Shown here: positions 3,123 to 59,098 of the stretch, in pieces
Layout of the letters: each line of letters begins with the position of its first letter
Position numbering within the stretch: position 1 is the first letter of the stretch
Sequence record: KX009778
Source of the DNA: Escherichia phage UFV-AREG1
Strand: one strand, 5' to 3'
Length of the DNA: 64,000 bases
Translations under genes and position numbers: made by a program
The notes under the pieces: model-generated
The model's input: only the letters and a program-made list of their open reading frames with translations
Databases searched by the model: none
Told to the model about the DNA's origin: nothing

Positions 3123-3677
3123 TTACCGGTAGCGACCCGGTTTCTCATTTGGTATTTCAAATTGTGTAGATTTAGTATCTAATTTTTTAACTATGGAACT
3201 TATGTCATGAAAGAAAAACCATTCGCCATTTATATGGTCCTGATTATAAATGCTGTGCATATATTTTTCAAGTTCTACTGCATCCTGGGAATATCTAAAT
3301 GATACTATTTTAAAACTTTTAAACGGTGAAAATGTATTTGCTGTTATAACTCTAACATCAGGTTCTATACTTCTTCCTATTTTATAATAATTAGGATTTG
3401 TAGTATCTACCATTATGTATACGAAAGCCTGTCGATAGCTTTTTTCTATATCAAATTCATCTTTAAATTTCAAAAGATTTAGGGCGGCAGTCCTACAAAA
3501 TACTTTCCATTTTGACAAGCGTTTAGCTTTAGTCATAGAAAAGAATTTTTTCTTATCTGTTATTTTAAGAAAAGCAACATTTTCAATTAGTTCTTGTGTT
3601 ATTTCAAAATTACCATGGTATATTAATCCAGCTTTTATAGCCAAATTAATTTGGTCCCAGTCTACATCACTTCTCAT
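3123..3677 (-). CDS. T5orf172 / GIY-YIG-like domain protein, 184 aa
   Basis: C-terminal half carries FVYIMVDTTNPNYYKIGRS ... R ... E..E..MH ... NGEWFFF, matching the GIY-YIG-like T5orf172 signature; N-terminal 85 aa unassigned. Confidence 0.6.
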   Translation of the reverse strand: MRSDVDWDQINLAIKAGLIYHGNFEITQELIENVAFLKITDKKKFFSMTKAKRLSKWKVFCRTAALNLLKFKDEFDIEKSYRQAFVYIMVDTTNPNYYKIGRSIEPDVRVITANTFSPFKSFKIVSFRYSQDAVELEKYMHSIYNQDHINGEWFFFHDISSIVKKLDTKSTQFEIPNEKPGRYR

Positions 3678-3698
3678 AATATTATTCTCTCAATAATT

Positions 3699-3775
3699 TG
3701 GCCAGGGTGAAAGGATTCTAACCTTTAACCTGCGGTTTAGAGGACCGCTACTCTATACAATTGAGTTACACCCCG
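3699..3775 (-). tRNA. tRNA-Arg (anticodon TCT), CCA encoded
   Basis: Manual cloverleaf: acceptor CGGGGTG/CACCCTG, D-stem ACTC/GAGT, anticodon stem GCGGT/ACCGC with loop CCTCTAA, T-arm AAAGG-TTAGAAT-CCTTT. Confidence 0.8.
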
Positions 3776-3901
3776 TAATTAGTTCACAGCAATACCTACT
3801 CCAACAATCAAGATGTCTTCACACGAAATTAAGAGAAAAGTGATCAGTTCAACCCTTATAATCGCGTCAAGTAGATATTAATGTGACAACTGTCACAAGT
3901 T

Positions 3902-3976
3902 TGGCGGACATGCATGGATTCGAACCATGGACCAATTGATTAACAGTCAACTGCTCTACCACTGAGCTACACATCC
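3902..3976 (-). tRNA. tRNA-Asn (anticodon GTT), CCA encoded
   Basis: Manual cloverleaf: acceptor GGATGTG/CATGTCC, D-arm GCTC-AGTGGTA-GAGC, anticodon loop CTGTTAA, T-arm CATGG-TTCGAAT-CCATG. Confidence 0.75.
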
Positions 3977-3980
3977 AAAT

Positions 3981-4067
3981 TGGTGGGGAGTGATGGAGTC
4001 GAACCACCCGAGTCGCAATGACAATGGATTTACAGTCCACACCGCTACCTCTACGGGATAACTCCCC
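3981..4067 (-). tRNA. tRNA-Tyr (anticodon GTA), type II with long variable arm, CCA encoded
   Basis: Acceptor GGGGAGT/ACTCCCC, anticodon stem GTGGA/TCCAT with loop CTGTAAA, long variable arm, T-arm GGTGG-TTCGACT-CCATC; D-arm pairing is irregular. Confidence 0.6.
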
Positions 4068-4076
4068 AAATTAATT

Positions 4077-4153
4077 TGGTGACCCAGACCAGATTTGAAC
4101 TGGTAACCTTTCCCTTATGAGGGGACTGCTGCTAACCATTGAGCTACAGGGCC
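4077..4153 (-). tRNA. tRNA with CAT anticodon (Ile-lysidine type or elongator Met), CCA encoded
   Basis: T-arm ACCAG-TTCAAAT-CTGGT, anticodon loop CTCATAA; acceptor stem has one mismatch and one G-U. Confidence 0.6.
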
Positions 4154-5662: not shown

Positions 5663-5887
5663 TTATTCAACGCCAGCGGCTTTCAAAAGTTTTTTAAGAT
5701 TGGCAACACCTTGAGCAGAAAATGTGACCTTGCCACCTTTTTCACTGATAGAACCAACCAATTTAGCAAGTTTATCATTAGGAATTTTTTTAAAATCAGC
5801 CAATGTTCCATCAAAGGTTTTTGAAACAAAAGGCAGTTCGTCTTCGCGTCTTTTAGCTTCTACAATAAATTCTTGATATGTTTTCAT
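5663..5887 (-). CDS. Internal-protein-like protein with CTS, 74 aa
   Basis: N-terminus MKTYQEFIVEA matches the T-even capsid-targeting sequence; own promoter cassette upstream. Confidence 0.65.
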   Translation of the reverse strand: MKTYQEFIVEAKRREDELPFVSKTFDGTLADFKKIPNDKLAKLVGSISEKGGKVTFSAQGVANLKKLLKAAGVE

Positions 5888-5915
5888 TTTATTCTCCTCA
5901 GTAGTTGATAGGGTA

Positions 5916-5945
5916 ATAGTATCACTACCCCATCTAAAAGTAAAC
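5916..5945 (-). promoter_or_regulatory. Early-promoter/stem-loop cassette (PeSL-like)
   Basis: Minus-strand GTTTAC -35, TACTAT -10 lying in the loop of a GGGTA/TACCC stem, then GAGGAG SD. Confidence 0.55.
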
Positions 5946-5955
5946 GGTTTATAAA

Positions 5956-6264
5956 CTATTTTATTCCGCGTGATGCAATTGTGTTCTGCCGTTTAACGCC
6001 AGTTTGTTTAAAGTCATGATTGTCGATTTGATCGGTACGAGCAACTCCGAATGATGATTTGATCTTAGCTTTAGATCCTTTAGTTATAGAAATAAACATC
6101 TCGGAAGCCCCTTTCTTAAAGTCCGAAGCGATTACTTCAACGCCGTTCTTAGCAAGTGACTTCAGAATTGCCTCTGCATACTCATCGTCAAGACTCGTCT
6201 GAGTATTAATAACGAATGTCTTTGGCGCAGCCGCTTCATTGATAAATTCTTTGAAAGTTTTCAT
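5956..6264 (-). CDS. Internal-protein-like protein with CTS, 102 aa
   Basis: N-terminus MKTFKEFINEA (CTS); own promoter cassette upstream. Confidence 0.65.
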   Translation of the reverse strand: MKTFKEFINEAAAPKTFVINTQTSLDDEYAEAILKSLAKNGVEVIASDFKKGASEMFISITKGSKAKIKSSFGVARTDQIDNHDFKQTGVKRQNTIASRGIK

Positions 6265-6294
6265 TTTATTTTCCTAATTAAGTTTGATGAGATA

Positions 6295-6324
6295 ATAGTA
6301 TCACAACCCTATTTAAAAGTAAAC
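6295..6324 (-). promoter_or_regulatory. Early-promoter/stem-loop cassette (PeSL-like)
   Basis: Minus-strand GTTTAC -35 overlapping the stop of the upstream gene, TACTAT -10, then AGGAAAATAAAATG. Confidence 0.5.
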
Positions 6325-6597
6325 TCATTTTAAATAAATTGCGTATTTTTTATAACCCGCTGACTCATGACGAAGACCCTTATCATTAGCAAAACGCTCA
6401 ATGTTGTTAATTTGATTCTGGTCAAGTTCAGAGATGTCAAACACGAAAAAGTTACGTTTGTTACCAACTGTTACATAGTCAGTTAAATCAATATCATATA
6501 GGTAATTGATGTCAGCAATCAAAGTCTTGACAGCTTTGCTAATTTTTACTTTTTCGTTAAAAGTAGCTTCATTGATAAATTCTTGATATGTTTTCAT
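6325..6597 (-). CDS. Internal-protein-like protein with CTS, 90 aa
   Basis: N-terminus MKTYQEFINEA (CTS); own promoter cassette upstream. Confidence 0.65.
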   Translation of the reverse strand: MKTYQEFINEATFNEKVKISKAVKTLIADINYLYDIDLTDYVTVGNKRNFFVFDISELDQNQINNIERFANDKGLRHESAGYKKYAIYLK

Positions 6598-12790: not shown

Positions 12791-13285
12791 ATGGAAGGTT
12801 CTTCTATCGACGTCACCTTTACCGCTCAATTAGAAACAGGTGAAACGTTAGTATCTATAAATATAACTAGTTACGAAGAAACTCCTGGGGTTTTAGTAGA
12901 AGAAAATCGTTTATATGGAACGTATGAATCTGTATTTGGATTTGGAAATGACGCGTTGAAATATCGTTTAGGTGATGAATTTAAAACTGCTGCTTCATGG
13001 GAAGAACTTCCTACTGATTCTGACACTCAGTTGTATTTGTGGAAAGCTCCTCAAAATCTCCAGAAGACATTCACTTACGAAGTAACATTAATATATGACT
13101 ACCAAGAACAAAGTGAATCTGGAGGTTCTGGCAGTAATTCTAGGTCATCTTCTGATACTACTGAACCAACAGATCCTCCTGCTCCAGTAAGAAAAACTCT
13201 CGTTAAAAATTATACTAAAACTATAGTTGGAAATTGGAGTCGTTGGGCTAATAAATTAAGAAGCTATGTGTATGAGAGGTCATAG
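12791..13285 (+). CDS. 5.1: gp5.1-like hypothetical protein, 164 aa
   Basis: Start placed at ATG 12791 after AGGAG SD, downstream of gp5 stop; track ORF 12728 start overlaps gp5. Confidence 0.6.
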
Positions 13286-13579
13286 ATGTCAGGATTAAGT
13301 TATGATAAATGTGTTACTGCTGGTCATGAAGCATGGCCTCCAACAGTTGTGAATGCTACACAAAGTAAAGTATTCACTGGAGGAATTGCTGTTCTCGTAG
13401 CAGGTGATCCAATTACAGAACATACAGAAATTAAAAAGCCATATGAAACACATGGCGGAGTGACACAACCTAGAACTTCTAAGGTATATGTCACTGGAAA
13501 GAAAGCTGTTCAAATGGCTGATCCAATATCATGCGGTGATACTGTGGCTCAGGCATCATCTAAAGTATTCATTAAATAG
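13286..13579 (+). CDS. 5.4: gp5.4 PAAR-repeat spike-tip protein
   Basis: 97 aa; position directly upstream of gene 6; size matches T4 gp5.4. Confidence 0.8.
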
Positions 13580-41966: not shown

Positions 41967-43097
41967 TTATGGATAGGTATAGATGATACCAGTTTCTAAA
42001 GCAGTTTTATGAATGATGTATCCATTACGTGATTCTTGAACATCAACTTCTGGATAGTCTTTCATCATCTTCTGAAGAGTATAACGATGCAAGTAGTATT
42101 TACTATCTGGATCGTCAGTTTTCCAATCTTTACCTTCTTCGGTCATTTTTTGGATTTCATCCATAACCCACCAACCGCACCAGATGTAAGCTGAAGTACG
42201 ATGTGGAAGAGGATGAACATAAGGTAATTCACCTTCTGGTTCTGGAGCAACTTTATCAGTTACCTGAACTTGACCTTCTGCTGTAATAGTTTTGCTATCA
42301 TAATCAGTAGCAGTAACAGTTGCAGTAACTTCAATAGTTTGACTTCCAATAGATGAGGTATCAACGGTATATACATTAGTTGACCCTTCTACAGGAGAAG
42401 AATCTTTCTTCCATGAATATTCAATTTGCGCTTCTTCTGGAGCATCCGTAACATTAGCCGTAAATGTAGCCGAAGCATCTTGCTGAACGTTAATAGAAGG
42501 AGGAGTCAATGTAATCTGTGGATTCATTGTCTTCTTATTAACAGTCAGTGATACTTCATTAGAAGTAACTTCTTTTGCATCATAATCTGTTGCCGTCACT
42601 TGGGCTACACATTTAATTCTTTTTACTCCACTTGTAGTTGGAGTATAGCTAAATGTAGCGTTAGTTGCTTCGCTCACAGGAGAATCATCTACATGCCACT
42701 GATACGTAGCAGATGCGCCTGATGGTTGAGAAGCTAAAGCAGCAGTAAATTCAACAGCTGTTCCGATTACTCCAGCAGCAGGGCTATCAGGAGTTACAGC
42801 CAATGTAGTTGTCTGAGTTTTATTTTGAACTGTGATAGTAGTTGACGCTTGAGCTGTTTCAGCTTCAGTATCAGGAACTGGATTTGTTGCAACTACCTTA
42901 ATAGTCTTTTGACCGGCAGGTCCTTTTAACACATAATCAAAAGTTGCCTCTGATCCTTCCTGAGGAACATCATCTACAGTCCAAGCATATGTAATAGGTC
43001 CATCTCCAGTTTGACCACTGGGCGTAGCAGTAAACTGCTGAGTCTGATCTATAACTCCAGTAGGTGTTTTAGGAGTTATATCAACTGTAAAAGCCAT
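41967..43097 (-). CDS. hoc: Hoc, highly immunogenic outer capsid protein (Ig-like domains)
   Basis: 376 aa; three internally repeated Ig-like modules (TYAWTVDD..., TYQWHVDD..., EYSWKKDS...); length matches T4. Confidence 0.9.
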   Translation of the reverse strand: MAFTVDITPKTPTGVIDQTQQFTATPSGQTGDGPITYAWTVDDVPQEGSEATFDYVLKGPAGQKTIKVVATNPVPDTEAETAQASTTITVQNKTQTTTLAVTPDSPAAGVIGTAVEFTAALASQPSGASATYQWHVDDSPVSEATNATFSYTPTTSGVKRIKCVAQVTATDYDAKEVTSNEVSLTVNKKTMNPQITLTPPSINVQQDASATFTANVTDAPEEAQIEYSWKKDSSPVEGSTNVYTVDTSSIGSQTIEVTATVTATDYDSKTITAEGQVQVTDKVAPEPEGELPYVHPLPHRTSAYIWCGWWVMDEIQKMTEEGKDWKTDDPDSKYYLHRYTLQKMMKDYPEVDVQESRNGYIIHKTALETGIIYTYP

Positions 43098-43106
43098 AAG
43101 TTATCC

Positions 43107-43787
43107 TTATTTTAATGTTACGAAAGAAGAATTGCGTGTTTCACGAATTAAAACTGATCCGTCACGGTTAATGTAATAAATTAAGCTAAATAAAGTTTGG
43201 TGTGCTGACGCGTGTTCAAAACTAGTTGGGTGAGATTTCCAATCCGGAGTTTCAGCAATCCATTGATAAATCCACCAAGGAACAGTACAGAATCCTGGAT
43301 TTTTTCCAATCAGCTGAAGATTCGGACTAAAGTTTTCCGGAAGAGTAAATACAGACGGCTTTTCAGATTCAATAATCTCAGCTACGGCCTGCTCGAATTT
43401 TTCTTCAACAAAAGGAGTATCTTCAATCAAAACATCGGTATTTTCGGGAATTTTATCCGTTTCGACTACTTCAATTTTAATGTCAGATTTAACCGGAGAA
43501 TCAATCAGAAGTGCTGCTTCTGGATTGACTTCTTCATCGTCATATTTTAATCCCTCTGCGGCATCAGCAGCATTGATTAAGTCTTTAATAGATAACCCAT
43601 CAGTCTCTGGCATAGGTTCACTAGCGAGCTTCTGGAGGGCTTCTTCAATATCAATAACGATATTATCAAAAGATTTATTCTTTTTGACCTTTATACCAAA
43701 CTGTTCAGCATATTCAGCTAATTTAGCTTTAGCTTCTTTATTATCATCAAGAGCCTTCAGCTCTGCAATATAATCTTTATCTATCAT
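43107..43787 (-). CDS. inh: Inh, inhibitor of prohead protease gp21
   Basis: 226 aa; position between hoc and uvsW as in T4. Confidence 0.8.
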   Translation of the reverse strand: MIDKDYIAELKALDDNKEAKAKLAEYAEQFGIKVKKNKSFDNIVIDIEEALQKLASEPMPETDGLSIKDLINAADAAEGLKYDDEEVNPEAALLIDSPVKSDIKIEVVETDKIPENTDVLIEDTPFVEEKFEQAVAEIIESEKPSVFTLPENFSPNLQLIGKNPGFCTVPWWIYQWIAETPDWKSHPTSFEHASAHQTLFSLIYYINRDGSVLIRETRNSSFVTLK

Positions 43788-43800
43788 AATATTTCCTCAG

Positions 43801-43808
43801 TATAAATA
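43801..43808 (+). promoter_or_regulatory. T4 late promoter core TATAAATA (uvsW)
   Basis: Exact TATAAATA 30 nt upstream of uvsW ATG in the divergent inh/uvsW intergenic region. Confidence 0.55.
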
Positions 43809-43837
43809 TAGATATATTTATTACATGGTATTTAGAC

Positions 43838-45349
43838 ATGACTGACATTAAAGTACATTTTTATGATTTTAGTCACGTGAGAATTGATTGTGAAGAAAGT
43901 ACATTTCATGAACTCCGTGATTTCTTTAGCTTTGAAGCTGATGGGTATCGTTTTAATCCTCGCTTCAGATATGGCAACTGGGATGGGCGAATCCGTCTTT
44001 TAGATTATAATCGACTTCTTCCATTCGGCTTAGTCGGGCAAATTAAAAAGTTCTGTGATAACTTTGGCTATAAAGCCTGGATTGACCCGCAGATTAACGA
44101 AAAAGAAGAATTATCAAGAAAAGATTTTGATGAATGGCTTTCTAAATTAGAAATCTATTCAGGAAATAAAAGAATTGAACCGCATTGGTATCAAAAAGAT
44201 GCAGTGTTCGAAGGATTAGTTAATCGTCGTAGAATTCTTAATCTTCCAACATCCGCAGGTAAATCCTTAATTCAAGCTTTGCTTGCACGTTATTATTTGG
44301 AAAATTATGAAGGTAAAATTCTTATCATTGTTCCAACAACTGCTTTGACAACTCAGATGGCTGATGACTTTGTTGACTATCGTTTATTCAGTCATGCAAT
44401 GATAAAGAAAATCGGTGGTGGAGCATCAAAAGATGATAAATATAAAAATGATGCACCAGTCGTTGTTGGTACATGGCAAACTGTAGTAAAACAACCAAAA
44501 GAATGGTTTTCCCAATTTGGTATGATGATGAATGATGAATGCCATCTTGCTACAGGAAAAAGTATTTCATCTATCATATCAGGTTTAAATAACTGCATGT
44601 TCAAATTTGGTCTATCGGGTTCATTACGTGATGGCAAAGCTAATATCATGCAGTATGTTGGAATGTTTGGTGAAATATTTAAGCCAGTAACGACTTCTAA
44701 ATTAATGGAAGATGGACAAGTAACTGAGTTAAAAATTAATAGTATTTTTCTTCGTTATCCTGATGAGTTCACTACTAAATTAAAGGGAAAAACTTACCAA
44801 GAAGAAATAAAAATTATTACTGGGCTCAGTAAAAGAAATAAATGGATCGCTAAATTAGCTATTAAACTTGCGCAAAAAGATGAAAACGCTTTTGTCATGT
44901 TTAAGCATGTATCACATGGTAAAGCTATTTTCGATTTAATTAAAAATGAATACGATAAAGTTTATTACGTATCAGGGGAAGTTGATACCGAAACCCGTAA
45001 TGTAATGAAAACATTAGCTGAAAACGGTAAAGGAATAATTATAGTAGCTAGTTATGGTGTATTTTCTACTGGTATTTCAGTTAAAAATCTGCATCACGTT
45101 GTTTTAGCGCACGGTGTTAAATCTAAAATTATTGTATTGCAAACAATAGGTCGTGTATTACGTAAGCATGGTTCTAAGACAATAGCAACAGTCTGGGACC
45201 TCATAGATGACGCGGGCGTGGTTTCTAAATCAAAAACATCTTCTAAAAAATACTCGCATTTAAACTATCTTTTAAAACATGGACTTGATCGTATTCAGCG
45301 TTATGCTGATGAAAAGTTTAATTATGTGATGAAAGAGGTTAAACTTTGA
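43838..45349 (+). CDS. uvsW: UvsW ATP-dependent DNA/RNA helicase (SF2)
   Basis: 503 aa; Walker A PTSAGKS, DECH box (MNDECHLA), C-terminal helicase motifs. Confidence 0.9.
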   Translation: MTDIKVHFYDFSHVRIDCEESTFHELRDFFSFEADGYRFNPRFRYGNWDGRIRLLDYNRLLPFGLVGQIKKFCDNFGYKAWIDPQINEKEELSRKDFDEWLSKLEIYSGNKRIEPHWYQKDAVFEGLVNRRRILNLPTSAGKSLIQALLARYYLENYEGKILIIVPTTALTTQMADDFVDYRLFSHAMIKKIGGGASKDDKYKNDAPVVVGTWQTVVKQPKEWFSQFGMMMNDECHLATGKSISSIISGLNNCMFKFGLSGSLRDGKANIMQYVGMFGEIFKPVTTSKLMEDGQVTELKINSIFLRYPDEFTTKLKGKTYQEEIKIITGLSKRNKWIAKLAIKLAQKDENAFVMFKHVSHGKAIFDLIKNEYDKVYYVSGEVDTETRNVMKTLAENGKGIIIVASYGVFSTGISVKNLHHVVLAHGVKSKIIVLQTIGRVLRKHGSKTIATVWDLIDDAGVVSKSKTSSKKYSHLNYLLKHGLDRIQRYADEKFNYVMKEVKL

Positions 45350-46038
45350 ATTATAAATTAATATATGATAATTTAATTAATAGAGCCCAGAATCGGGCTC
45401 GCCTTAATGGATACACTGAAACTCATCATATAATTCCTAGATGTATGGGTGGTACAGATGATAGGTGTAATTTAGTAGAACTAACAGCTGAAGAACATTT
45501 TATAGCCCATAAACTTTTAGCTAAAATTCATCCAAATCATTACGGTATAATTAAAGCCGTTATATGTATGGGAATGAACTCAAAGACTCATGAAAGACAC
45601 GTTAATAAATCTTACGCATGGGAACGTCGTAAAATGGCAGAACTTCAATCCGGTGAAGGTAATCCATTTTACGGAAAACACCATACGGAAGAACATAAAC
45701 AATATATGTCAAAACTCATGAAAAGTCGTCCAATTACATGGGGAAATAAAATTAGTAAAACTAAAAGAATGAACCCAACAAAATGGACCGAAGAAGCTAA
45801 AAGATTACATTCAATCAATCAATCGGGTAAAAATAATGGCATGTATGGAAGGAAACATTCCGCTAAATCTATTCAGAAAATTAAAGATAACATGCCAGAT
45901 AATTCAGGAGCTAATAACCCAGCTGCTAAACCTATAGAAGTAAATGGTGTTAAATATAAATGTATGAAAGACGCTTCTAAAGCTGCTGGATTATCAATGT
46001 ACAAACTAAGAATACTCAGAAAAACAGTTAATTTATAA
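45346..46038 (+). mobile_element. Freestanding HNH homing endonuclease (Mob-like), 230 aa, probable TTG start overlapping uvsW stop
   Basis: HNH motif ETHHIIPRCMGGTDDRCNLVELTAEEHFIAH; repeated NPFYGKHH / NNGMYGRKH NUMOD-like segments; C-terminal DNA-binding-like tail; AAGAGG SD 7 nt before TTG; no ATG upstream of the HNH motif. Confidence 0.7.
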
Positions 46039-46052
46039 GGGCTTCGGCCCTT
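46037..46052 (+). terminator. UUCG-tetraloop hairpin after the HNH gene
   Basis: aagggc-ttcg-gccctt followed by TT. Confidence 0.45.
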
Positions 46053-46063
46053 TGGAGAAAAAG

Positions 46064-46294
46064 ATGTTACTAGAATTTAAACAATTTCTTTATGAAGCTT
46101 CTATTGATGAATTTATGGGTAAAATTGCCTCTTGCCAAACGATAGAAGGTTTAGAAGAACTTGAAGCTTATTATAAGAAAAGAGTTAAAGAAACTGAATT
46201 AAAAGATACTGATGACATCTCAGTCAGAGATGCTTTGGCAGGAAAAAGAGCTGAATTAGAAGATTCAGACGATGAAGTAGAAGAAAGCTTTTAA
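46064..46294 (+). CDS. uvsW.1: UvsW.1-like small acidic protein, 76 aa
   Basis: Start moved to ATG 46064 (GGAG SD); track ORF start at 46052 is a TTG. Confidence 0.6.
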   Translation: MLLEFKQFLYEASIDEFMGKIASCQTIEGLEELEAYYKKRVKETELKDTDDISVRDALAGKRAELEDSDDEVEESF

Positions 46295-46349
46295 ATTAAA
46301 AAAGGCCCAACCAAAAAGGAAGGGCCAAAACTATAGACTAAAGGTCACA

Positions 46350-46517
46350 CTATAGCAAAAGTTGTGTTTCATTTAATTGTTCTTCAGAACTTTCTGAAAC
46401 TGGTAGTTCTTTAATGTAATTATAGCAAGGCCCAGGATGTACAGGACCTTTGTCTGTTTCAACAACCAATGCAGAATCGATTGGAGTTTTACAGACAACA
46501 CAAATCTTATCTGACAT
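46350..46517 (-). CDS. Small Cys-rich protein, 55 aa (uvsY.-2-like position)
   Basis: Not in ORF track (below cutoff); GAGGAG SD before ATG at 46517; translation MSDKICVVCKTPIDSALVVETDKGPVHPGPCYNYIKELPVSESSEEQLNETQLLL with CxxC...C arrangement. Confidence 0.45.
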   Translation of the reverse strand: MSDKICVVCKTPIDSALVVETDKGPVHPGPCYNYIKELPVSESSEEQLNETQLLL

Positions 46518-46545
46518 GATTGTCTCCTCTAAATTATATATCTAT

Positions 46546-46770
46546 TTATATAACTCTCATATGCATATCAATACCCATATCTTTAGAATAAAAATATTCA
46601 TCAAGATATCCGGCAAATTTTCCTTTAATATAAAGTACATCTTCACCGCATGGGTGGTCGGCCAGGATACGAATATCCTGACGCTTGAGATTATACTTTT
46701 TCATTAAGAATTGAATTTCCGTTTCGAATTCTTCTTCATAATTAAAAGCATCATCAATGCTATATTTCAT
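46546..46770 (-). CDS. Hypothetical protein, 74 aa (uvsY.-1-like position)
   Basis: ORF abutting uvsY stop; same strand. Confidence 0.6.
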   Translation of the reverse strand: MKYSIDDAFNYEEEFETEIQFLMKKYNLKRQDIRILADHPCGEDVLYIKGKFAGYLDEYFYSKDMGIDMHMRVI

Positions 46771-47183
46771 TATTTTCCAGCCTCAAATGCTCGCATGTCT
46801 TGAATATGCTTAATAGCAAATCCACGTGATTTAATAGCATCAAGAGCTCCGCTACAGAAATCCAATAAAATTCCCCAATATTGTAATGAAGTATCAACTT
46901 TTAAAACATCCTTATCAGCTGATAGAACTGTCTTCATTTCTGATTTCTCATAACGATCCATACTAAATTCATCACCATCTCCTCGTCCCGAGTAGTAGTC
47001 TAATTTAGCTTTAAGAGCAACTTTTTTCTGTGCTTCAATTCTAAGCATTTCCTTTTTAATACTTGAATGCTTATTAAGCCATTTACTATATAACATCACA
47101 TTATTAGCTGCTTCATATTGCAATTTAGTCGAATCTATAAACACATCTTTCTTCAATTCTTCTTGAAGATCTTCTAATCTCAT
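46770..47183 (-). CDS. uvsY: UvsY recombination mediator protein
   Basis: 137 aa; length and position (between uvsW and gene 25) match T4. Confidence 0.9.
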   Translation of the reverse strand: MRLEDLQEELKKDVFIDSTKLQYEAANNVMLYSKWLNKHSSIKKEMLRIEAQKKVALKAKLDYYSGRGDGDEFSMDRYEKSEMKTVLSADKDVLKVDTSLQYWGILLDFCSGALDAIKSRGFAIKHIQDMRAFEAGK

Positions 47184-47223
47184 ATTGTTCTCTATTCAAT
47201 TGTTATTGGATGGACTTAGATTC

Positions 47224-47250
47224 ATTATACCACGTTTATACGTGAAGCAT
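47224..47250 (-). promoter_or_regulatory. Candidate MotA-dependent middle promoter for uvsY
   Basis: Minus-strand ATGCTTCA (MotA-box-like) followed 15 nt later by TATAAT, upstream of uvsY ATG. Confidence 0.4.
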
Positions 47251-47648
47251 TATACTCTATTACTGGAAGCCAGTTGCAGTTTTATCTGCTCAATATCATC
47301 AGGGTTATCGATGACCGAAAAGCGTATTTCTACTATCAGAGTATAATCATCATAAACTGGTATTACATTAACTGCTAATTTATCAATACGTGGCTCGTAG
47401 TTTCTTACTGCGCTTTCAATGTTACGCTCAACGGTATCAGCAGTAAGAGGAGTCATATTCTCAAAAAGTTGATCAGATAAATCGCATCCAAATTCTGGGT
47501 CAAATGGCCTTGACCCTTTCCTGGTTGTAATAATTCCCAAAAGGCTATTTTTAATTGACCTTAATCCAAGGGATCTAGAAACATCTTTATCCCAATCCAT
47601 TTTCATTTCTGGGTCAATGTCAGAATAAAGCTTATTAATATTTGCCAT
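47250..47648 (-). CDS. 25: gp25 baseplate wedge subunit (lysozyme-fold / LysM-like)
   Basis: 132 aa; length and order match T4. Confidence 0.9.
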   Translation of the reverse strand: MANINKLYSDIDPEMKMDWDKDVSRSLGLRSIKNSLLGIITTRKGSRPFDPEFGCDLSDQLFENMTPLTADTVERNIESAVRNYEPRIDKLAVNVIPVYDDYTLIVEIRFSVIDNPDDIEQIKLQLASSNRV

Positions 47649-54943: not shown

Positions 54944-57001
54944 CTACATTTTGAACTTTTTAGACATTCTGTTGATGTTAACCAAAGAAGCTAAGATTTG
55001 AGAAACTTCGCTTTCCTCTTCTTTTGATTCTTCTACAAGGAATTGATTAAATCCAGCCATTGGACGAACTTCACCAGTTTCCATCAGATGGTCGCCATCA
55101 TATACTGATTCTTCTAATTGTTCAGAAGGAGGAACGATTGTACCTTCGATTAGATACTTATTATAAGCAGTTTCTTTCATCATGTACGTACTTACTTTAT
55201 TAATCTTCAGTAAAATTCCACGTGGTAGAATAACTTCAGCTTCTGATGGAAATCCTGATAAATGACCCGGAACGATAACTTTAACTCGTTCAGCTCCTTT
55301 AATTACCATACCTACATTAGTTTCAGCGTCTTCATTCGCATATGTAGAATGACTACCCATATGCATTAAATCTTCAGCATCAACTGAACCTTCTCCTTCA
55401 CCAGAAAATACTGCTCCGGAATCATCTAAGGCCATATAATTTTTACCATATTCACCGAAGATATTTGGCTTGAGTGAAGTAGATACAAAGTTCTTGAAAT
55501 AGAACATTTTATTTTCTATATTATGACGCAAAGTTTTAAAGGTAACTTCTTGCCCACGATAAAGAGTAGTTCCTGGAGGAAGAACTGAACCTTTAGAAAA
55601 TGCAGAATCCAGCGTCTCAATATGTTTAATAGCTCGTTCCATATATTCTTCACGGGTAGAATCAGGTTTACCTAAAAGGAATGAGTTCATTTCAACATAT
55701 GAATCTGCACAATAATCTTCAATTACATCAGATTCAGCCTGAGTTAATCCTTTTGGAGTTACTTCAGTGCTTGCATATTCATATGCCTGAGCAGCAGATT
55801 CATCAATTAATTTATAAATTCCATTCATTACAAATTGAATAATAGCTGTCTTTTCATCTGGTGTAGCTTTAGAACCTTTAACTAAATCATTGATAATTTT
55901 CTTAATAACATCAAAACTATTAGAAATATTAATGTCAGCAAGATCGCTTAAAATTTTATCAGTTTTATAATCAAAGAATTCTTTATTCTTTAAATATTCT
56001 TGAGAACCTTGATATGTTATATCGCTCTGCAGCTTGATAGATGGATCGCGTAAACGTGCATGGGCCAATGCAATATGATTTCGGAAGCTTTCTAGTTCAT
56101 AATCGCTAGATTTAAAACGAGAAGCACTTCTCATACCACCGATAGCTCCTTTGCTAAAGTTTGAACCAATCTGAATAACGCCAGAGTTCATTGATCCTTC
56201 TGCTTTATATACCGGAACTTTAGATTCAAACTCTTGATATTTCTTAGCAGCGAAGCTATCACCCTGGAGTGAAGCGTCAACAGTAGAATATTGAGCTTGG
56301 GCTGCTAATCGACGACTGATTTTAGTTTTCTGAATAACAGCTTGATCCGTGCGCTTATCATTTTCTAAAGCAATAGAAGCAGCAACAGCAACAGCTTTAG
56401 GAACAGCATTACCTGTTTTAACGTCTACATAAACATCACCAACCTTTGATTCAACTTTTGTGAATAACTCGGTTGAAATAGGAGGTACACCTGGAATGTC
56501 TTCTAATTTGGCATTTTTACGGTAAACCATAATATATGCGTACTTTTTATCATAATCCCAGATTTCCTTTAAAAGAACATATCGACCTGCTCCTTTAGTA
56601 CGTACTAAACGGTCAGCAATAACTTGCATTTGCCGAGCAGCGCCATTTGTTTTACTTTTTAGTACGCGGAATAGGCATGCATCAATTTTATACTGTTTCA
56701 TTGTTTGAAGAGCAGTATCAAAAACAGCATTAATGACGCCAATTGGATTTCCACCCAAGTTTTTAAGCTTAACTAATGATAGTTTCTCATTAACACCTAT
56801 CATTACGATATGCATCATTTTGTCGCCTGGCTTAACGTTTTTATTCGTATCACCGCCAGAGGTGTATGTACAAAATCTAAATCCAGGAAGCACGCTTTCT
56901 TCACCTGCTTGAATAGCAAAAATTTGAGGTATTTTATGCTTAGGATTTAAGTTAACAACCGGCGCCGAAGCGCCGTCAAATAATTCTGTAATAAGTTCCA
57001 T
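54944..57001 (-). CDS. alt: Alt-like NAD:protein ADP-ribosyltransferase, 685 aa (paralog A)
   Basis: R-S-ExE ART triad in C-terminal domain (LYRGQ, FVSTSL, SEAEVILPRG); N-terminus MELITE with gp21-type ITE cleavage motif; length close to T4 Alt. Confidence 0.8.
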   Translation of the reverse strand: MELITELFDGASAPVVNLNPKHKIPQIFAIQAGEESVLPGFRFCTYTSGGDTNKNVKPGDKMMHIVMIGVNEKLSLVKLKNLGGNPIGVINAVFDTALQTMKQYKIDACLFRVLKSKTNGAARQMQVIADRLVRTKGAGRYVLLKEIWDYDKKYAYIMVYRKNAKLEDIPGVPPISTELFTKVESKVGDVYVDVKTGNAVPKAVAVAASIALENDKRTDQAVIQKTKISRRLAAQAQYSTVDASLQGDSFAAKKYQEFESKVPVYKAEGSMNSGVIQIGSNFSKGAIGGMRSASRFKSSDYELESFRNHIALAHARLRDPSIKLQSDITYQGSQEYLKNKEFFDYKTDKILSDLADINISNSFDVIKKIINDLVKGSKATPDEKTAIIQFVMNGIYKLIDESAAQAYEYASTEVTPKGLTQAESDVIEDYCADSYVEMNSFLLGKPDSTREEYMERAIKHIETLDSAFSKGSVLPPGTTLYRGQEVTFKTLRHNIENKMFYFKNFVSTSLKPNIFGEYGKNYMALDDSGAVFSGEGEGSVDAEDLMHMGSHSTYANEDAETNVGMVIKGAERVKVIVPGHLSGFPSEAEVILPRGILLKINKVSTYMMKETAYNKYLIEGTIVPPSEQLEESVYDGDHLMETGEVRPMAGFNQFLVEESKEEESEVSQILASLVNINRMSKKFKM

Positions 57002-57004
57002 GAT

Positions 57005-59098
57005 TTATCCTTGAACGAACTTGTAAGGCATGTTTGTAATATCTATGCAAGACGCAATAATTCCAAGAGATGATTCTACTTTCTGTTTAATATTTGATGA
57101 AACAAATGATGCAAAGTCAACTCTGTCTTCTATTTCAATATCACCTGTCATTGCAACCAATTCACCAGTTTCCATTAAATGGTCTCCATCATAGATTACC
57201 GATTCGGTGAGCTCTTCCGTGGTCATAACTTCAGCTTGAATGAGTTTTGTATTATTAGATGTTGTTCCGTCATTATTAGAAGCATCGATTATTTTATTAA
57301 CTTTGACCATCAATCCACGCGGTAGAATAACTTCAGCTTCTGTTGCTATTCCGAGACTTCCTGGATATACAACATTAACTTTATGAGCTCCATCAATTGC
57401 CCATCCTATTTGAACTTTAACATATTCAGGATTTTCTTTATACGCTCTTATTTCGTTTGGATTAATAGTTATTCCTTCTTCATTTTTATCAACTGTTAAT
57501 TCATTGCGAGCTCCTGGTTCTAAAAGACCAATACCAGCATGTGTGATTCCAAAACGTCCAAAAATGATAGGAGTTAAAGAAGTAGATACAAAATTTCTGA
57601 AGTAGAACACTTTATTTTTAACTAACGCTTCATATATAGGAGCAGTCATACTTTGAGCACGATAAACTGTAATGCCTTCTGGTATACGGTCACCATTTTC
57701 AAAAGCTGAATCTAAGTTATTTATAGCAGATTCAATTTCTTTTTCACTCATTACATCATATCGTTCTGGATTGTAACGACCTAAAAGAAGATTATTGATG
57801 TCAGTATATCCTGAACCGCAATATTCTCTAATGCCACGCTTTTGTGATGGAGTATATTTAGAACCATCGCGGGCAATAGTAATATCAATCATTGGACCAG
57901 CACCAATTCCAGAAAAACTGTAAATCATTCGTTTGAGGAATTTAGTTTTTGCTGCGTTCCAGGAATTTTTAGTTATTTCTTCCCAGACTTCATCTGGTTG
58001 TCCTTTACGATTTTTATTATGATTAGCAAGCCATTTATCTTTATAATCTTCAAAGAATTGATTTACAGCTGCTGCGTATTTCTCTAAACATTTTATTGAA
58101 GTAGTTGGTTCATTTTTAATTGCATTAAAAATTACTTCTTTAATTTTTTCTGAAACTTCACCGACTTGACTCATTGGAAAGAATTTATAATCATAGTGAA
58201 GTTCATCTGCCGTTCCTTCAGCAATAATTTTTGCTGCCTTTGTTTTAGAAGCTAATGAATTAATTCCAATTTTCATTTCTTCTGCTTCGGGAATTAAAGG
58301 TGCAGTAGCTGGTTTATTAAAATTAGCTGCTGTAGATTCATACTTCTGGAATAATTCACTTTCAAATCTAGAAGATTCCAATGACTGACTTTGTGCAATT
58401 GCTCTACGGGAAATTTTAACTTTAACGATTACAGCTTGGTCAGAACGTTTATCATTTTCTTGCGCAATAGATGCTGCAATTGCTTCATTTTTAGTTACTT
58501 GAGCTCCAGTATCTTTATTGATATAAACATCACCGACCTTCGATTCAACTTTAGTAAAGAGTTCAGTGCTAATTTCTGGAACTCCTGGAATGTCTTCTAG
58601 TGATACATTTTTGCGATGTATAAGAATATATGCATACTTTTTATCATAATCCCAGAGTTCCTTAAGAAGGACGTATCTGCCACCTGAACGACTACGGATA
58701 AGTCTATCAGCAATAACTTGAATTTGTCGAGCTTGGCCAGCAGTTTTAGACTTAAGAATACGAAGCATACAAGCATCAATTTTATACTGACGCATTGTTT
58801 GCATTGCAACAGTAAAAACTGAATTGATATAATTAATTGGGCTTGGCCCAAGACCTTTCAATTTAGCAATTGAACCTTTAGCAGTTAATGTAAAAGGAAC
58901 AATATGCATCATTTTATCGCCCATCTTTAAATCACGATTAGTATCACCTCCAGATGTATAGGTACATAAACGAAAGCCTGGTTGTTCAATTGCGTCATCG
59001 ACATGAACTGAAAAAATTTGTGGTATCTTCTTCTTTGGATTTAAGTTTGTAATCGGAAGAGTAGTATCTTCGTCAAATAATTCTGTAATAAGTTCCAT
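57005..59098 (-). CDS. alt: Alt-like NAD:protein ADP-ribosyltransferase, 697 aa (paralog B)
   Basis: Same N-terminus MELITELFD and conserved first ~200 aa as paralog A; ART triad VYRAQ, FVSTSL, TEAEVILPRG; divergent central region. Confidence 0.8.
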   Translation of the reverse strand: MELITELFDEDTTLPITNLNPKKKIPQIFSVHVDDAIEQPGFRLCTYTSGGDTNRDLKMGDKMMHIVPFTLTAKGSIAKLKGLGPSPINYINSVFTVAMQTMRQYKIDACMLRILKSKTAGQARQIQVIADRLIRSRSGGRYVLLKELWDYDKKYAYILIHRKNVSLEDIPGVPEISTELFTKVESKVGDVYINKDTGAQVTKNEAIAASIAQENDKRSDQAVIVKVKISRRAIAQSQSLESSRFESELFQKYESTAANFNKPATAPLIPEAEEMKIGINSLASKTKAAKIIAEGTADELHYDYKFFPMSQVGEVSEKIKEVIFNAIKNEPTTSIKCLEKYAAAVNQFFEDYKDKWLANHNKNRKGQPDEVWEEITKNSWNAAKTKFLKRMIYSFSGIGAGPMIDITIARDGSKYTPSQKRGIREYCGSGYTDINNLLLGRYNPERYDVMSEKEIESAINNLDSAFENGDRIPEGITVYRAQSMTAPIYEALVKNKVFYFRNFVSTSLTPIIFGRFGITHAGIGLLEPGARNELTVDKNEEGITINPNEIRAYKENPEYVKVQIGWAIDGAHKVNVVYPGSLGIATEAEVILPRGLMVKVNKIIDASNNDGTTSNNTKLIQAEVMTTEELTESVIYDGDHLMETGELVAMTGDIEIEDRVDFASFVSSNIKQKVESSLGIIASCIDITNMPYKFVQG

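Follow-up and report, generated by a model that had tools for sequence, protein, structure and literature searches.

We examined the 3′ end of the helicase gene uvsW in a 64,000-nt stretch of Escherichia phage UFV-AREG1 (KX009778; hereafter the window), which is of Tequatrovirus (T4/T6-like) type and collinear with T4 68.4-130.4 kb. An open reading frame (ORF) of 230 aa for a putative homing endonuclease (45346..46038, + strand) lies there between uvsW (43838..45349, +; 503 aa) and uvsW.1 (46064..46294, +; 76 aa). Both neighbours had been named in a previous reading made from the letters of the DNA without database searches (the sequence-only reading), and were confirmed by Pfam matches, to UvsW_N (7e-43) and helicase domains for the former, here the endonuclease-linked allele, and to PF11637 (6.5e-30) for the latter. 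A ribosome-binding site (RBS) of its own, GGAG, precedes uvsW.1 (46054-57, +), and a native hairpin with a UUCG loop, GGGCUUCGGCCC (46039..46050, +, as judged by folding), is located between uvsW and uvsW.1. The sequences closest to the locus, at 97-99% identity, are those of Tequatrovirus phages, e.g. ACG-C40, PST and T6.

The TTG start codon of the endonuclease ORF (45346-48) overlaps the uvsW TGA (45347-49) and is preceded by AAGAGG 7 nt upstream (45333-38), in line with the initiation site proposed earlier. An in-frame TAA (45340-42) leaves no room for a start farther upstream. In-frame ATG is first encountered at codon 34, within the HNH motif, so the statement that no ATG precedes this motif was also correct. 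Mob proteins all begin with MNY and the ORF begins with (TTG)-N-Y; TTG thus aligns with their initiator methionine, and the orthologues of phages Roth04 and Rgz1 have ATG at this position. Of the extent first assigned to the gene, 45346-46052, the start was retained, while the ORF ends at 46038 and the rest takes in the hairpin GGGCTTCGGCCC.

The ORF comprises a Mob-type HNH nuclease domain (about aa 1-105, from similarity to Mob proteins), NUMOD3 repeats (about aa 94-128 and 158-185, from Pfam) and a predicted helix-turn-helix end resembling that of I-TevI (about aa 195-225). The HNH motif HHIIPRCMGGTDDRCNLVELTAEEHFIAH occupies aa 27-55 and reads ETHH(27-28)IIPRCMGGTDDRCN(42)LVELTAEEH(51)FIAH(55). 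Its catalytic histidine and asparagine positions are conserved on alignment, H28, N42, H51 and H55 being invariant among 13 full-length homologues. In a profile built from these homologues, the motif lines up with the HNH motifs of McrA and of a group II intron maturase; the same profile matches the solved DNA-binding domain of I-TevI (PDB 1i3j; 6.4e-7). T4 MobE is 51% identical to aa 1-105 (E = 1e-31) and T4 MobD 59% identical to aa 1-71 (9e-26); MobB (44%, 7e-26), MobC (45%, 8e-20) and the MobA remnant (67%) match the N-terminal nuclease domain as well. The HNH motif recognized by the sequence-only reading, and the relation to the T4 Mob family (44-59% identity for MobB-E) suggested by its comparison with mob genes, are thus supported, and the HNH assignment rests mainly on the identity with MobE and on the four invariant residues.

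The repeated NUMOD-like segments were recovered as Pfam NUMOD3 (PF07460) in two stretches, with 51.8 bits for a cut-off of 20.4. In the C-terminal half, residues 158-222 are 32% identical to I-TevI 169-234 (BLASTP, 3e-7), and Pfam I-TevI_DNA-bd (PF20987) scored 14.5 bits, below its cut-off of 27. PHROGs returned phrog_655, ‘homing endonuclease’ (1e-59), and TIGR01453 a weak match (30 bits, cut-off 56) spanning only the NUMOD3 and DNA-binding region. The likeness to I-HmuI considered earlier was not borne out: no I-HmuI chain was present among PDB sequence matches at E up to 1, with the single sequence or with the profile, and the DNA-binding half resembles I-TevI. The only cysteines, at positions 33, 41, 74 and 206, are unclustered, and no Cys4 zinc finger was found in the linker. 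An AlphaFold model (mean pLDDT 70.5, about 76-88 around the HNH motif) shows strands 25-28 and 43-46 followed by helix 48-61 at the motif, and a confident C-terminal helix-turn-helix. Its best, non-significant Foldseek matches were I-TevI (E = 0.17, probability 0.96) and Cas8-HNH (E = 0.68, probability 0.84). Structure prediction weakly backs the HNH assignment.

Insertion within uvsW and exchange of its tail

The protein is encoded at 95% identity or more in 47 GenBank phage records, T6 among them, and carriers make up about 10% of Tequatrovirus records. When 45335-46023 was removed from the query, about 446 records aligned over 800/800 nt in one piece (90-95% identity), as expected for a precise empty site; the carriers match the same deleted query in two pieces (97-98.5%). 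The search for empty alleles, planned beforehand, thus gave about 47 occupied versus about 446 precisely empty sites, so that the gene is not present at this position in all relatives, which would have refuted the earlier reading. The inserted cassette is 689 bp long (45335..46023, +), with boundaries ambiguous by at most 3 nt (shared AAA). The empty site reads ...AATTACGTAATGAAA|ACAGTTAATTTATAA GGGCTTCGGCCC... and the window ...AATTATGTGATGAAA|GAGGTTAAACTTTGAATTAT ... CTCAGAAA|ACAGTTAATTTATAA GGGCTTCGGCCC. Alignment of these junctions places the insertion point within uvsW, where it follows Lys499 and leaves four codons to the stop, and not in an intergenic site as had been thought.

The cassette carries a surrogate uvsW tail, GAG GTT AAA CTT TGA (E V K L stop; 45335..45349, +), which holds most of the endonuclease RBS together with its TTG start. 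The native tail, ACA GTT AAT TTA TAA (T V N L stop; 46024..46038, +), is the same as that of the empty alleles, which it matches over 18/18 nt in the window. It now provides the C-terminus and the stop codon of the endonuclease, whose ORF has no stop of its own. Accordingly, occupied uvsW ends with ...NYVMK-EVKL-stop and empty alleles with ...NYVMK-TVNL-stop, and the length of UvsW is kept at 503 aa. This borrowed stop and tail swap is a tidy yet unsurprising case of such genes sparing their host. The hairpin that the sequence-only reading had noticed after the gene immediately follows the uvsW stop in every empty site, without change; on this comparison it belongs to the host locus and not to the insert. 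The possibility that the endonuclease ORF ends in a more extended, degenerate copy of the 3′ end of uvsW was rejected: the codons concerned, YKLRxLxK, are conserved in orthologues without a tail copy.

A permissive Rfam search of 43000-47500 (E up to 1) detected no group I intron and no other family. With no intron RNA in this region, and with the ORF lying between two separately translated ORFs, the earlier description of a free-standing gene holds. Each of the 74 UvsW.1 homologues found stands alone as a protein of 52-96 aa, and none is fused; an ancient insertion of the endonuclease gene as the origin of the uvsW/uvsW.1 split is therefore unsupported. In the T4 reference record NC_000866.4, uvsW is annotated as a single 587-aa ORF, reading ...AATTTAATAAGCTTCGGCCC; the sequence in resequenced T4, as in all relatives, is ...AATTTATAAGGGCTTCGGCCC. 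This single ORF, which fuses uvsW and uvsW.1, is a known sequencing error (PMC1524935).

The endonuclease ORF is under purifying selection. Within Tequatrovirus, dN/dS is 0.07-0.08, with 14 synonymous versus 4-5 non-synonymous changes (5 versus T6), and between genera 0.10-0.33. These values (0.07-0.33) argue for a translated, constrained gene instead of a chance ORF. Decayed copies also occur: BF15 carries a 4-nt deletion causing a frameshift, so that the protein ends at 195 aa, and UFV-AREG1 encodes a 146-aa fragment of the endonuclease. Such coexistence of intact and degraded copies is in keeping with the life cycle usual for homing endonuclease genes, in which a frameshifted copy like that of BF15 is expected at a late stage. 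Genomes of varied background harbor the cassette, some with segE and some without, and the tract linked to it is very short.

The junction in other genera and its expression

Orthologues with 54-70% identity are located between uvsW and uvsW.1 in Klebsiella phage Roth04, Dhakavirus PSD2002, MT446411 and Morganella phage Rgz1. The uvsW TGA is overlapped by an ATG start codon in Roth04 and Rgz1; the window, PSD2002 and MT446411 have TTG instead. The surrogate-tail module is present also in Dhakavirus phages PSD2002 (GAGGTCCAAATTTGA) and Bp7 (GAGGTGCAGCTTTGA). Dhakavirus empty sites (QL01, JS98) read ...GTAATGAAA|CAGGTGGATTTATGAAAACC; in these the uvsW.1 ATG overlaps the uvsW TGA and an RBS is within the tail. 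PSD2002 has its insert at the same point; its endonuclease ORF ends in the retained native tail (21/21 nt), and the overlap of this tail with the uvsW.1 ATG persists. In MT446411 the two tail copies match over 19/21 nt. The same ATGA overlap of uvsW and uvsW.1 was observed in Klebsiella-type empty sites (L029, L043). Since the native tail retained in Roth04 and PSD2002 keeps this overlap, uvsW.1 would be coupled there to the endonuclease ORF. Three genera contain both occupied and precisely empty sites.

Some Dhakavirus phages carry a different Mob-like gene at this junction, as in Bp7 (HQ829472; L023 718-1500). It shares with the gene in the window the left junction ATGAAA|GAGGTGCAGCTTTGAATTATCAG, the TTG start and a Mob-type N-terminus (49% identical). 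However, it encodes 260 aa, its C-terminal half is MobD-like (30% identity to MobD, full length) and the native uvsW tail is replaced, not read into. Comparison of the two types suggests a fixed 5′ module that has been combined with different DNA-binding halves by exchange.

With respect to expression, an exact match to the T4 late-promoter consensus, TATAAATA (43801..43808, +), is present 30 nt upstream of the uvsW ATG, and no other exact match exists on the + strand in 43808-46294. This promoter is the likely source of a transcript including uvsW, the endonuclease gene and uvsW.1. A scan of the locus for sigma-70 promoters and terminators gave nothing beyond shuffled expectation, and the cassette is probably promoterless, like mobE. 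Two near-consensus late-promoter motifs with one mismatch each occur on the + strand within the ORF, TATAAATT (45352-45359) and TATAAATG (45955-45962). The second, about 100 nt upstream of uvsW.1, might drive uvsW.1 independently; in Roth04, the one orthologue compared (by eye), the equivalent stretch does not contain it. At the level of translation, the TTG/TGA overlap and the RBS in the last uvsW codons fit initiation by ribosomes that have just reached the end of uvsW. For a start-masking hairpin, in which 45313-23 would pair with 45337-47 and cover the RBS and TTG, RNAalifold gave no consensus structure, and conservation of the pairs did not exceed chance.

A GC-rich hairpin, GAGCCC-AGAAUC-GGGCUC (45383..45400, +), covers codons 13-18 and begins 37 nt after the UUG (-12.8 kcal/mol, z = -2.8). 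Hairpins with different stems, encoding different residues, are found at about the same position of the ORF in T4 mobE, the four orthologues and the Bp7 gene; for all seven sequences, the window included, values range from -12 to -16.7 kcal/mol and z from -2.7 to -4.4. That the hairpin is kept in position despite differing stems and residues argues for selection on nucleic acid structure. In T4 mobE, an internal terminator starts 27 nt after the AUG and stops 30-50% of transcripts (PMC2790892). By analogy, the hairpin in the window probably acts as an attenuator limiting endonuclease expression.

The closest characterized system is T4 MobE, a free-standing HNH homing endonuclease encoded between nrdA and nrdB (Wilson & Edgell 2009, PMC2790892). 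Beyond the N-terminal nuclease domain, the probable lack of a promoter and the early GC-rich hairpin, the two genes share a start overlapping the upstream stop (UAAUGA in mobE, UUUGA here) and polymorphisms distinguishing carrier from target in a neighbouring essential gene. MobE differs in its size (141 aa), in having neither NUMOD3 nor an I-TevI-like region, and in its true intergenic site, from which it targets the downstream gene; the gene described here starts with TTG, is inserted within the upstream gene near its 3′ end and borrows the stop codon of that gene. Nicking and homing were shown experimentally for MobE and are predicted for the present gene.

MobB, MobC and MobD share the MNY...HHIIP...NLV...EH..AH nuclease domain and are also free-standing, several of them overlapping the upstream ORF (PMC2988022), but are unrelated in their C-terminal halves and located elsewhere in the genome. 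The endonuclease here, with NUMOD3 above its cut-off, resembles I-TevI only in the DNA-binding domain; I-TevI is an intron-encoded enzyme with a GIY-YIG nuclease, and its Cys4 zinc finger has no equivalent in this protein. Mob-type genes within a coding region are also represented by mobE of Aeromonas phage Aeh1 in nrdA and T4 mobA in the gene 39/60 topoisomerase (PMC2988022). Those two split the host protein into two working parts, whereas here only the last four uvsW codons are displaced and are replaced by a surrogate.

Diverged uvsW tract and candidate target

We compared eight carrier with eight non-carrier Tequatrovirus loci for fixed differences. All 29 were found at 45214-45328, within the 121 nt upstream of the insert (diverged tract 45214..45334, +), with none in the 300 nt downstream and none in the other ~480 of the 600 nt examined upstream. 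Eight (45262-45328) were left once the mosaic non-carrier OES_C-1 was included. Close to the insert, nearly every change is synonymous. The tract is probably a co-conversion or immunity tract, with the probable target inside it.

Empty alleles harbor a perfect 10-bp palindrome, ATTACGTAAT, 5-14 nt upstream of the insertion point, which is broken in every occupied one; its counterpart in the window is ATTATGTGAT (45321..45330, unstranded). Two of the fixed positions, 45325 and 45328, fall inside it. The TACGTA sequence is intact in 24/26 empty loci, from four lineages, and in 0/13 occupied loci, all 13 carrier loci reading TAT GTB at this site. Other nearby synonymous sites did not consistently track the gene between genera. 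We therefore put forward the hypothesis that ATTACGTAAT is the candidate core of the recognition or nick site, and that the two substitutions would protect the carrier.

No donor of the tract was identified: in sensitive BLAST searches, no phage without the gene carries it, apart from mosaic alleles e.g. OES_C-1. Mosaic allele aside, the closest phages not carrying the gene are ~81% identical, and the tract is not clearly nearer to Dhakavirus, Klebsiella or Morganella alleles. The uvsW 3′ end of OES_C-1 (L025 1440-1700) combines a distal block of carrier type (GVVSKSKTSSKKYS) with a proximal 70 nt and a tail of T4 type, and about four records fall in the same identity band. This allele is either a recombinant or a leftover after gene loss.

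The 5′ end of uvsW provides a positive control for this approach. The SegE endonuclease targets uvsW (PMC2988022), and the first 100 nt of the gene show ~25% divergence between phages with and without segE. Given this footprint around the SegE target, uvsW appears flanked by two independent endonuclease insertion sites. segE itself, located between inh and uvsW in T4, T6, ACG-C40 and PST, is not in the window (43788-43937), where the first 100 nt of uvsW are only 0-4% different from those of BF15 and UFV11, both without segE.

Several other differences from T4 were observed in the window. At ~13282-13287, about 560 bp of T4 (80217-80775, including segC and gene 5.3) are missing, another empty endonuclease site. 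At the place of the T4 GIY-YIG endonuclease gene segB, within the tRNA region, a 184-aa ORF (3123-3677, -) carries a MUG113/T5orf172 domain (2.7e-9), and 3155-4080 has no counterpart in T4. Beside ipI, ~930 bp not found in T4 (5663-6597, -) include three small ORFs (74-102 aa), each starting with MKT(Y/F)(Q/K)EFI.EA, which resemble additional genes for internal proteins that bear the customary capsid-targeting leader. Finally, 54944-59098 (-) contains two tandem full-length Alt-like ADP-ribosyltransferase ORFs of 685 and 697 aa (PF03496, 2e-20 and 3e-36); T4, by contrast, has one alt gene and the remnants alt.-1 and alt.-2.

Interpretation and alternatives

Taken together, these results argue, with a probability of about 0.8, for a free-standing homing endonuclease gene of the T4 Mob family, with an I-TevI-like DNA-binding half, carried in uvsW as a 689-bp, probably promoterless cassette. 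From the sequence comparisons we infer that the endonuclease cleaves and homes. The gene would be transcribed with uvsW from the late promoter at 43801. Ribosomes finishing uvsW would give a low level of translation, with expression limited by the weak TTG and by the internal GC hairpin. In mixed infection, the endonuclease would nick or cut the uvsW 3′ end of gene-free phages, probably at or near ATTACGTAAT. Recombinational repair would then copy the cassette with the short upstream tract into the cut genome, carrier genomes being protected by the synonymous changes at the site.

Several observations weigh against this interpretation. Pfam HNH (PF01844) scored 16.0 bits, below its cut-off of 21.4 (E = 0.014), and Foldseek with the AlphaFold model returned nothing from PDB at E <= 0.001. 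The pairs of the hairpin that would cover the RBS are 80% kept across six lineages, a level matched by 118/500 shuffles in this AT-rich sequence. The link between palindrome and empty site has two exceptions among the empty loci (L026, L028), and it could reflect inherited donor sequence and not immunity; the upstream tract, in turn, could stem from one ancient transfer out of an unknown donor, with ordinary recombination thereafter, and not from continuing homing. Moreover, we found no paper describing this gene in the literature. GenBank entries already label it ‘homing endonuclease’, ‘MobE’ or ‘mobD’, and it is an uncharacterized member of the Mob family. The anatomy of tail swap and borrowed stop, the recurrence at the junction across genera and the candidate target appear to be undescribed.

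A more specific proposal, which we make tentatively and hold to be possible instead of probable, is that of a lineage specialized for a translationally coupled gene junction. The cassette would be a portable copy of this junction on which halves are swapped, with ATTACGTAAT as the target core. If so, the native end would restart uvsW.1 translation in some genera and neither neighbour would lose expression.

Alternatively, the gene may be an inactive and hardly expressed relic which entered Tequatrovirus once, perhaps by illegitimate recombination, and has spread by descent and ordinary recombination. The weak TTG start in three lineages, the degenerate copies represented by the BF15 frameshift and the 146-aa fragment of UFV-AREG1, and the failure to find a tract donor closer than ~81% identity, the mosaic aside, are all in keeping with such a history. 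Strong purifying selection (14 synonymous versus 5 non-synonymous changes within Tequatrovirus, with selection also evident between genera) and the invariance of the catalytic residues are not. Nor does this scenario agree with a cassette found on varied backgrounds, whether or not segE is present, with a very short linked tract, and with occupied and empty sites together in three genera. We consider it unlikely.

Still less probable, in our opinion, is that the gene is kept for the benefit of the phage, to cut co-infecting relatives (marker exclusion or competition) or to aid recombination with UvsW. The gene does lie in a recombination gene cluster (uvsW, uvsW.1, uvsY) and the ORF is under long-term purifying selection; such competition between intron endonucleases appears among the references of a review of T4 mobile elements (PMC2988022). 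This position is nevertheless the only link of its function to UvsW, and the presence in only ~10% of Tequatrovirus records, together with the decayed copies, fits a dispensable gene. An intron-encoded endonuclease, with uvsW and uvsW.1 as exons of one gene, could be imagined from the annotation ‘group I intron endonuclease’ in G28 and G8, the weak TIGR01453 match and the 587-aa UvsW of the T4 reference record, but it is refuted by the Rfam result, by the stop, hairpin and separate RBS between the two ORFs in empty sites, by the stand-alone UvsW.1 homologues, by the sequencing error behind the single T4 ORF and by the restriction of the TIGR01453 match to the NUMOD3 and DNA-binding region.

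A free-standing Mob-family endonuclease gene in uvsW would leave the current understanding of homing endonucleases unaltered. It would explain why the uvsW 3′ end is a local divergence hot spot in T4-like genomes, and it defines a predicted target of ~120 bp with a 10-bp candidate core differing by two synonymous bases between carriers and non-carriers. To our knowledge, MobE and MobA are the only T-even free-standing HNH endonucleases with any experimental data, and the gene described here adds a defined, testable member to this small set, with T6 as a ready laboratory carrier and T4 and T2 as natural recipients. The tail swap illustrates a way for a selfish gene to invade an essential gene at its end, and a pair of coupled genes, while the length of the host protein is kept and the downstream gene is left coupled.

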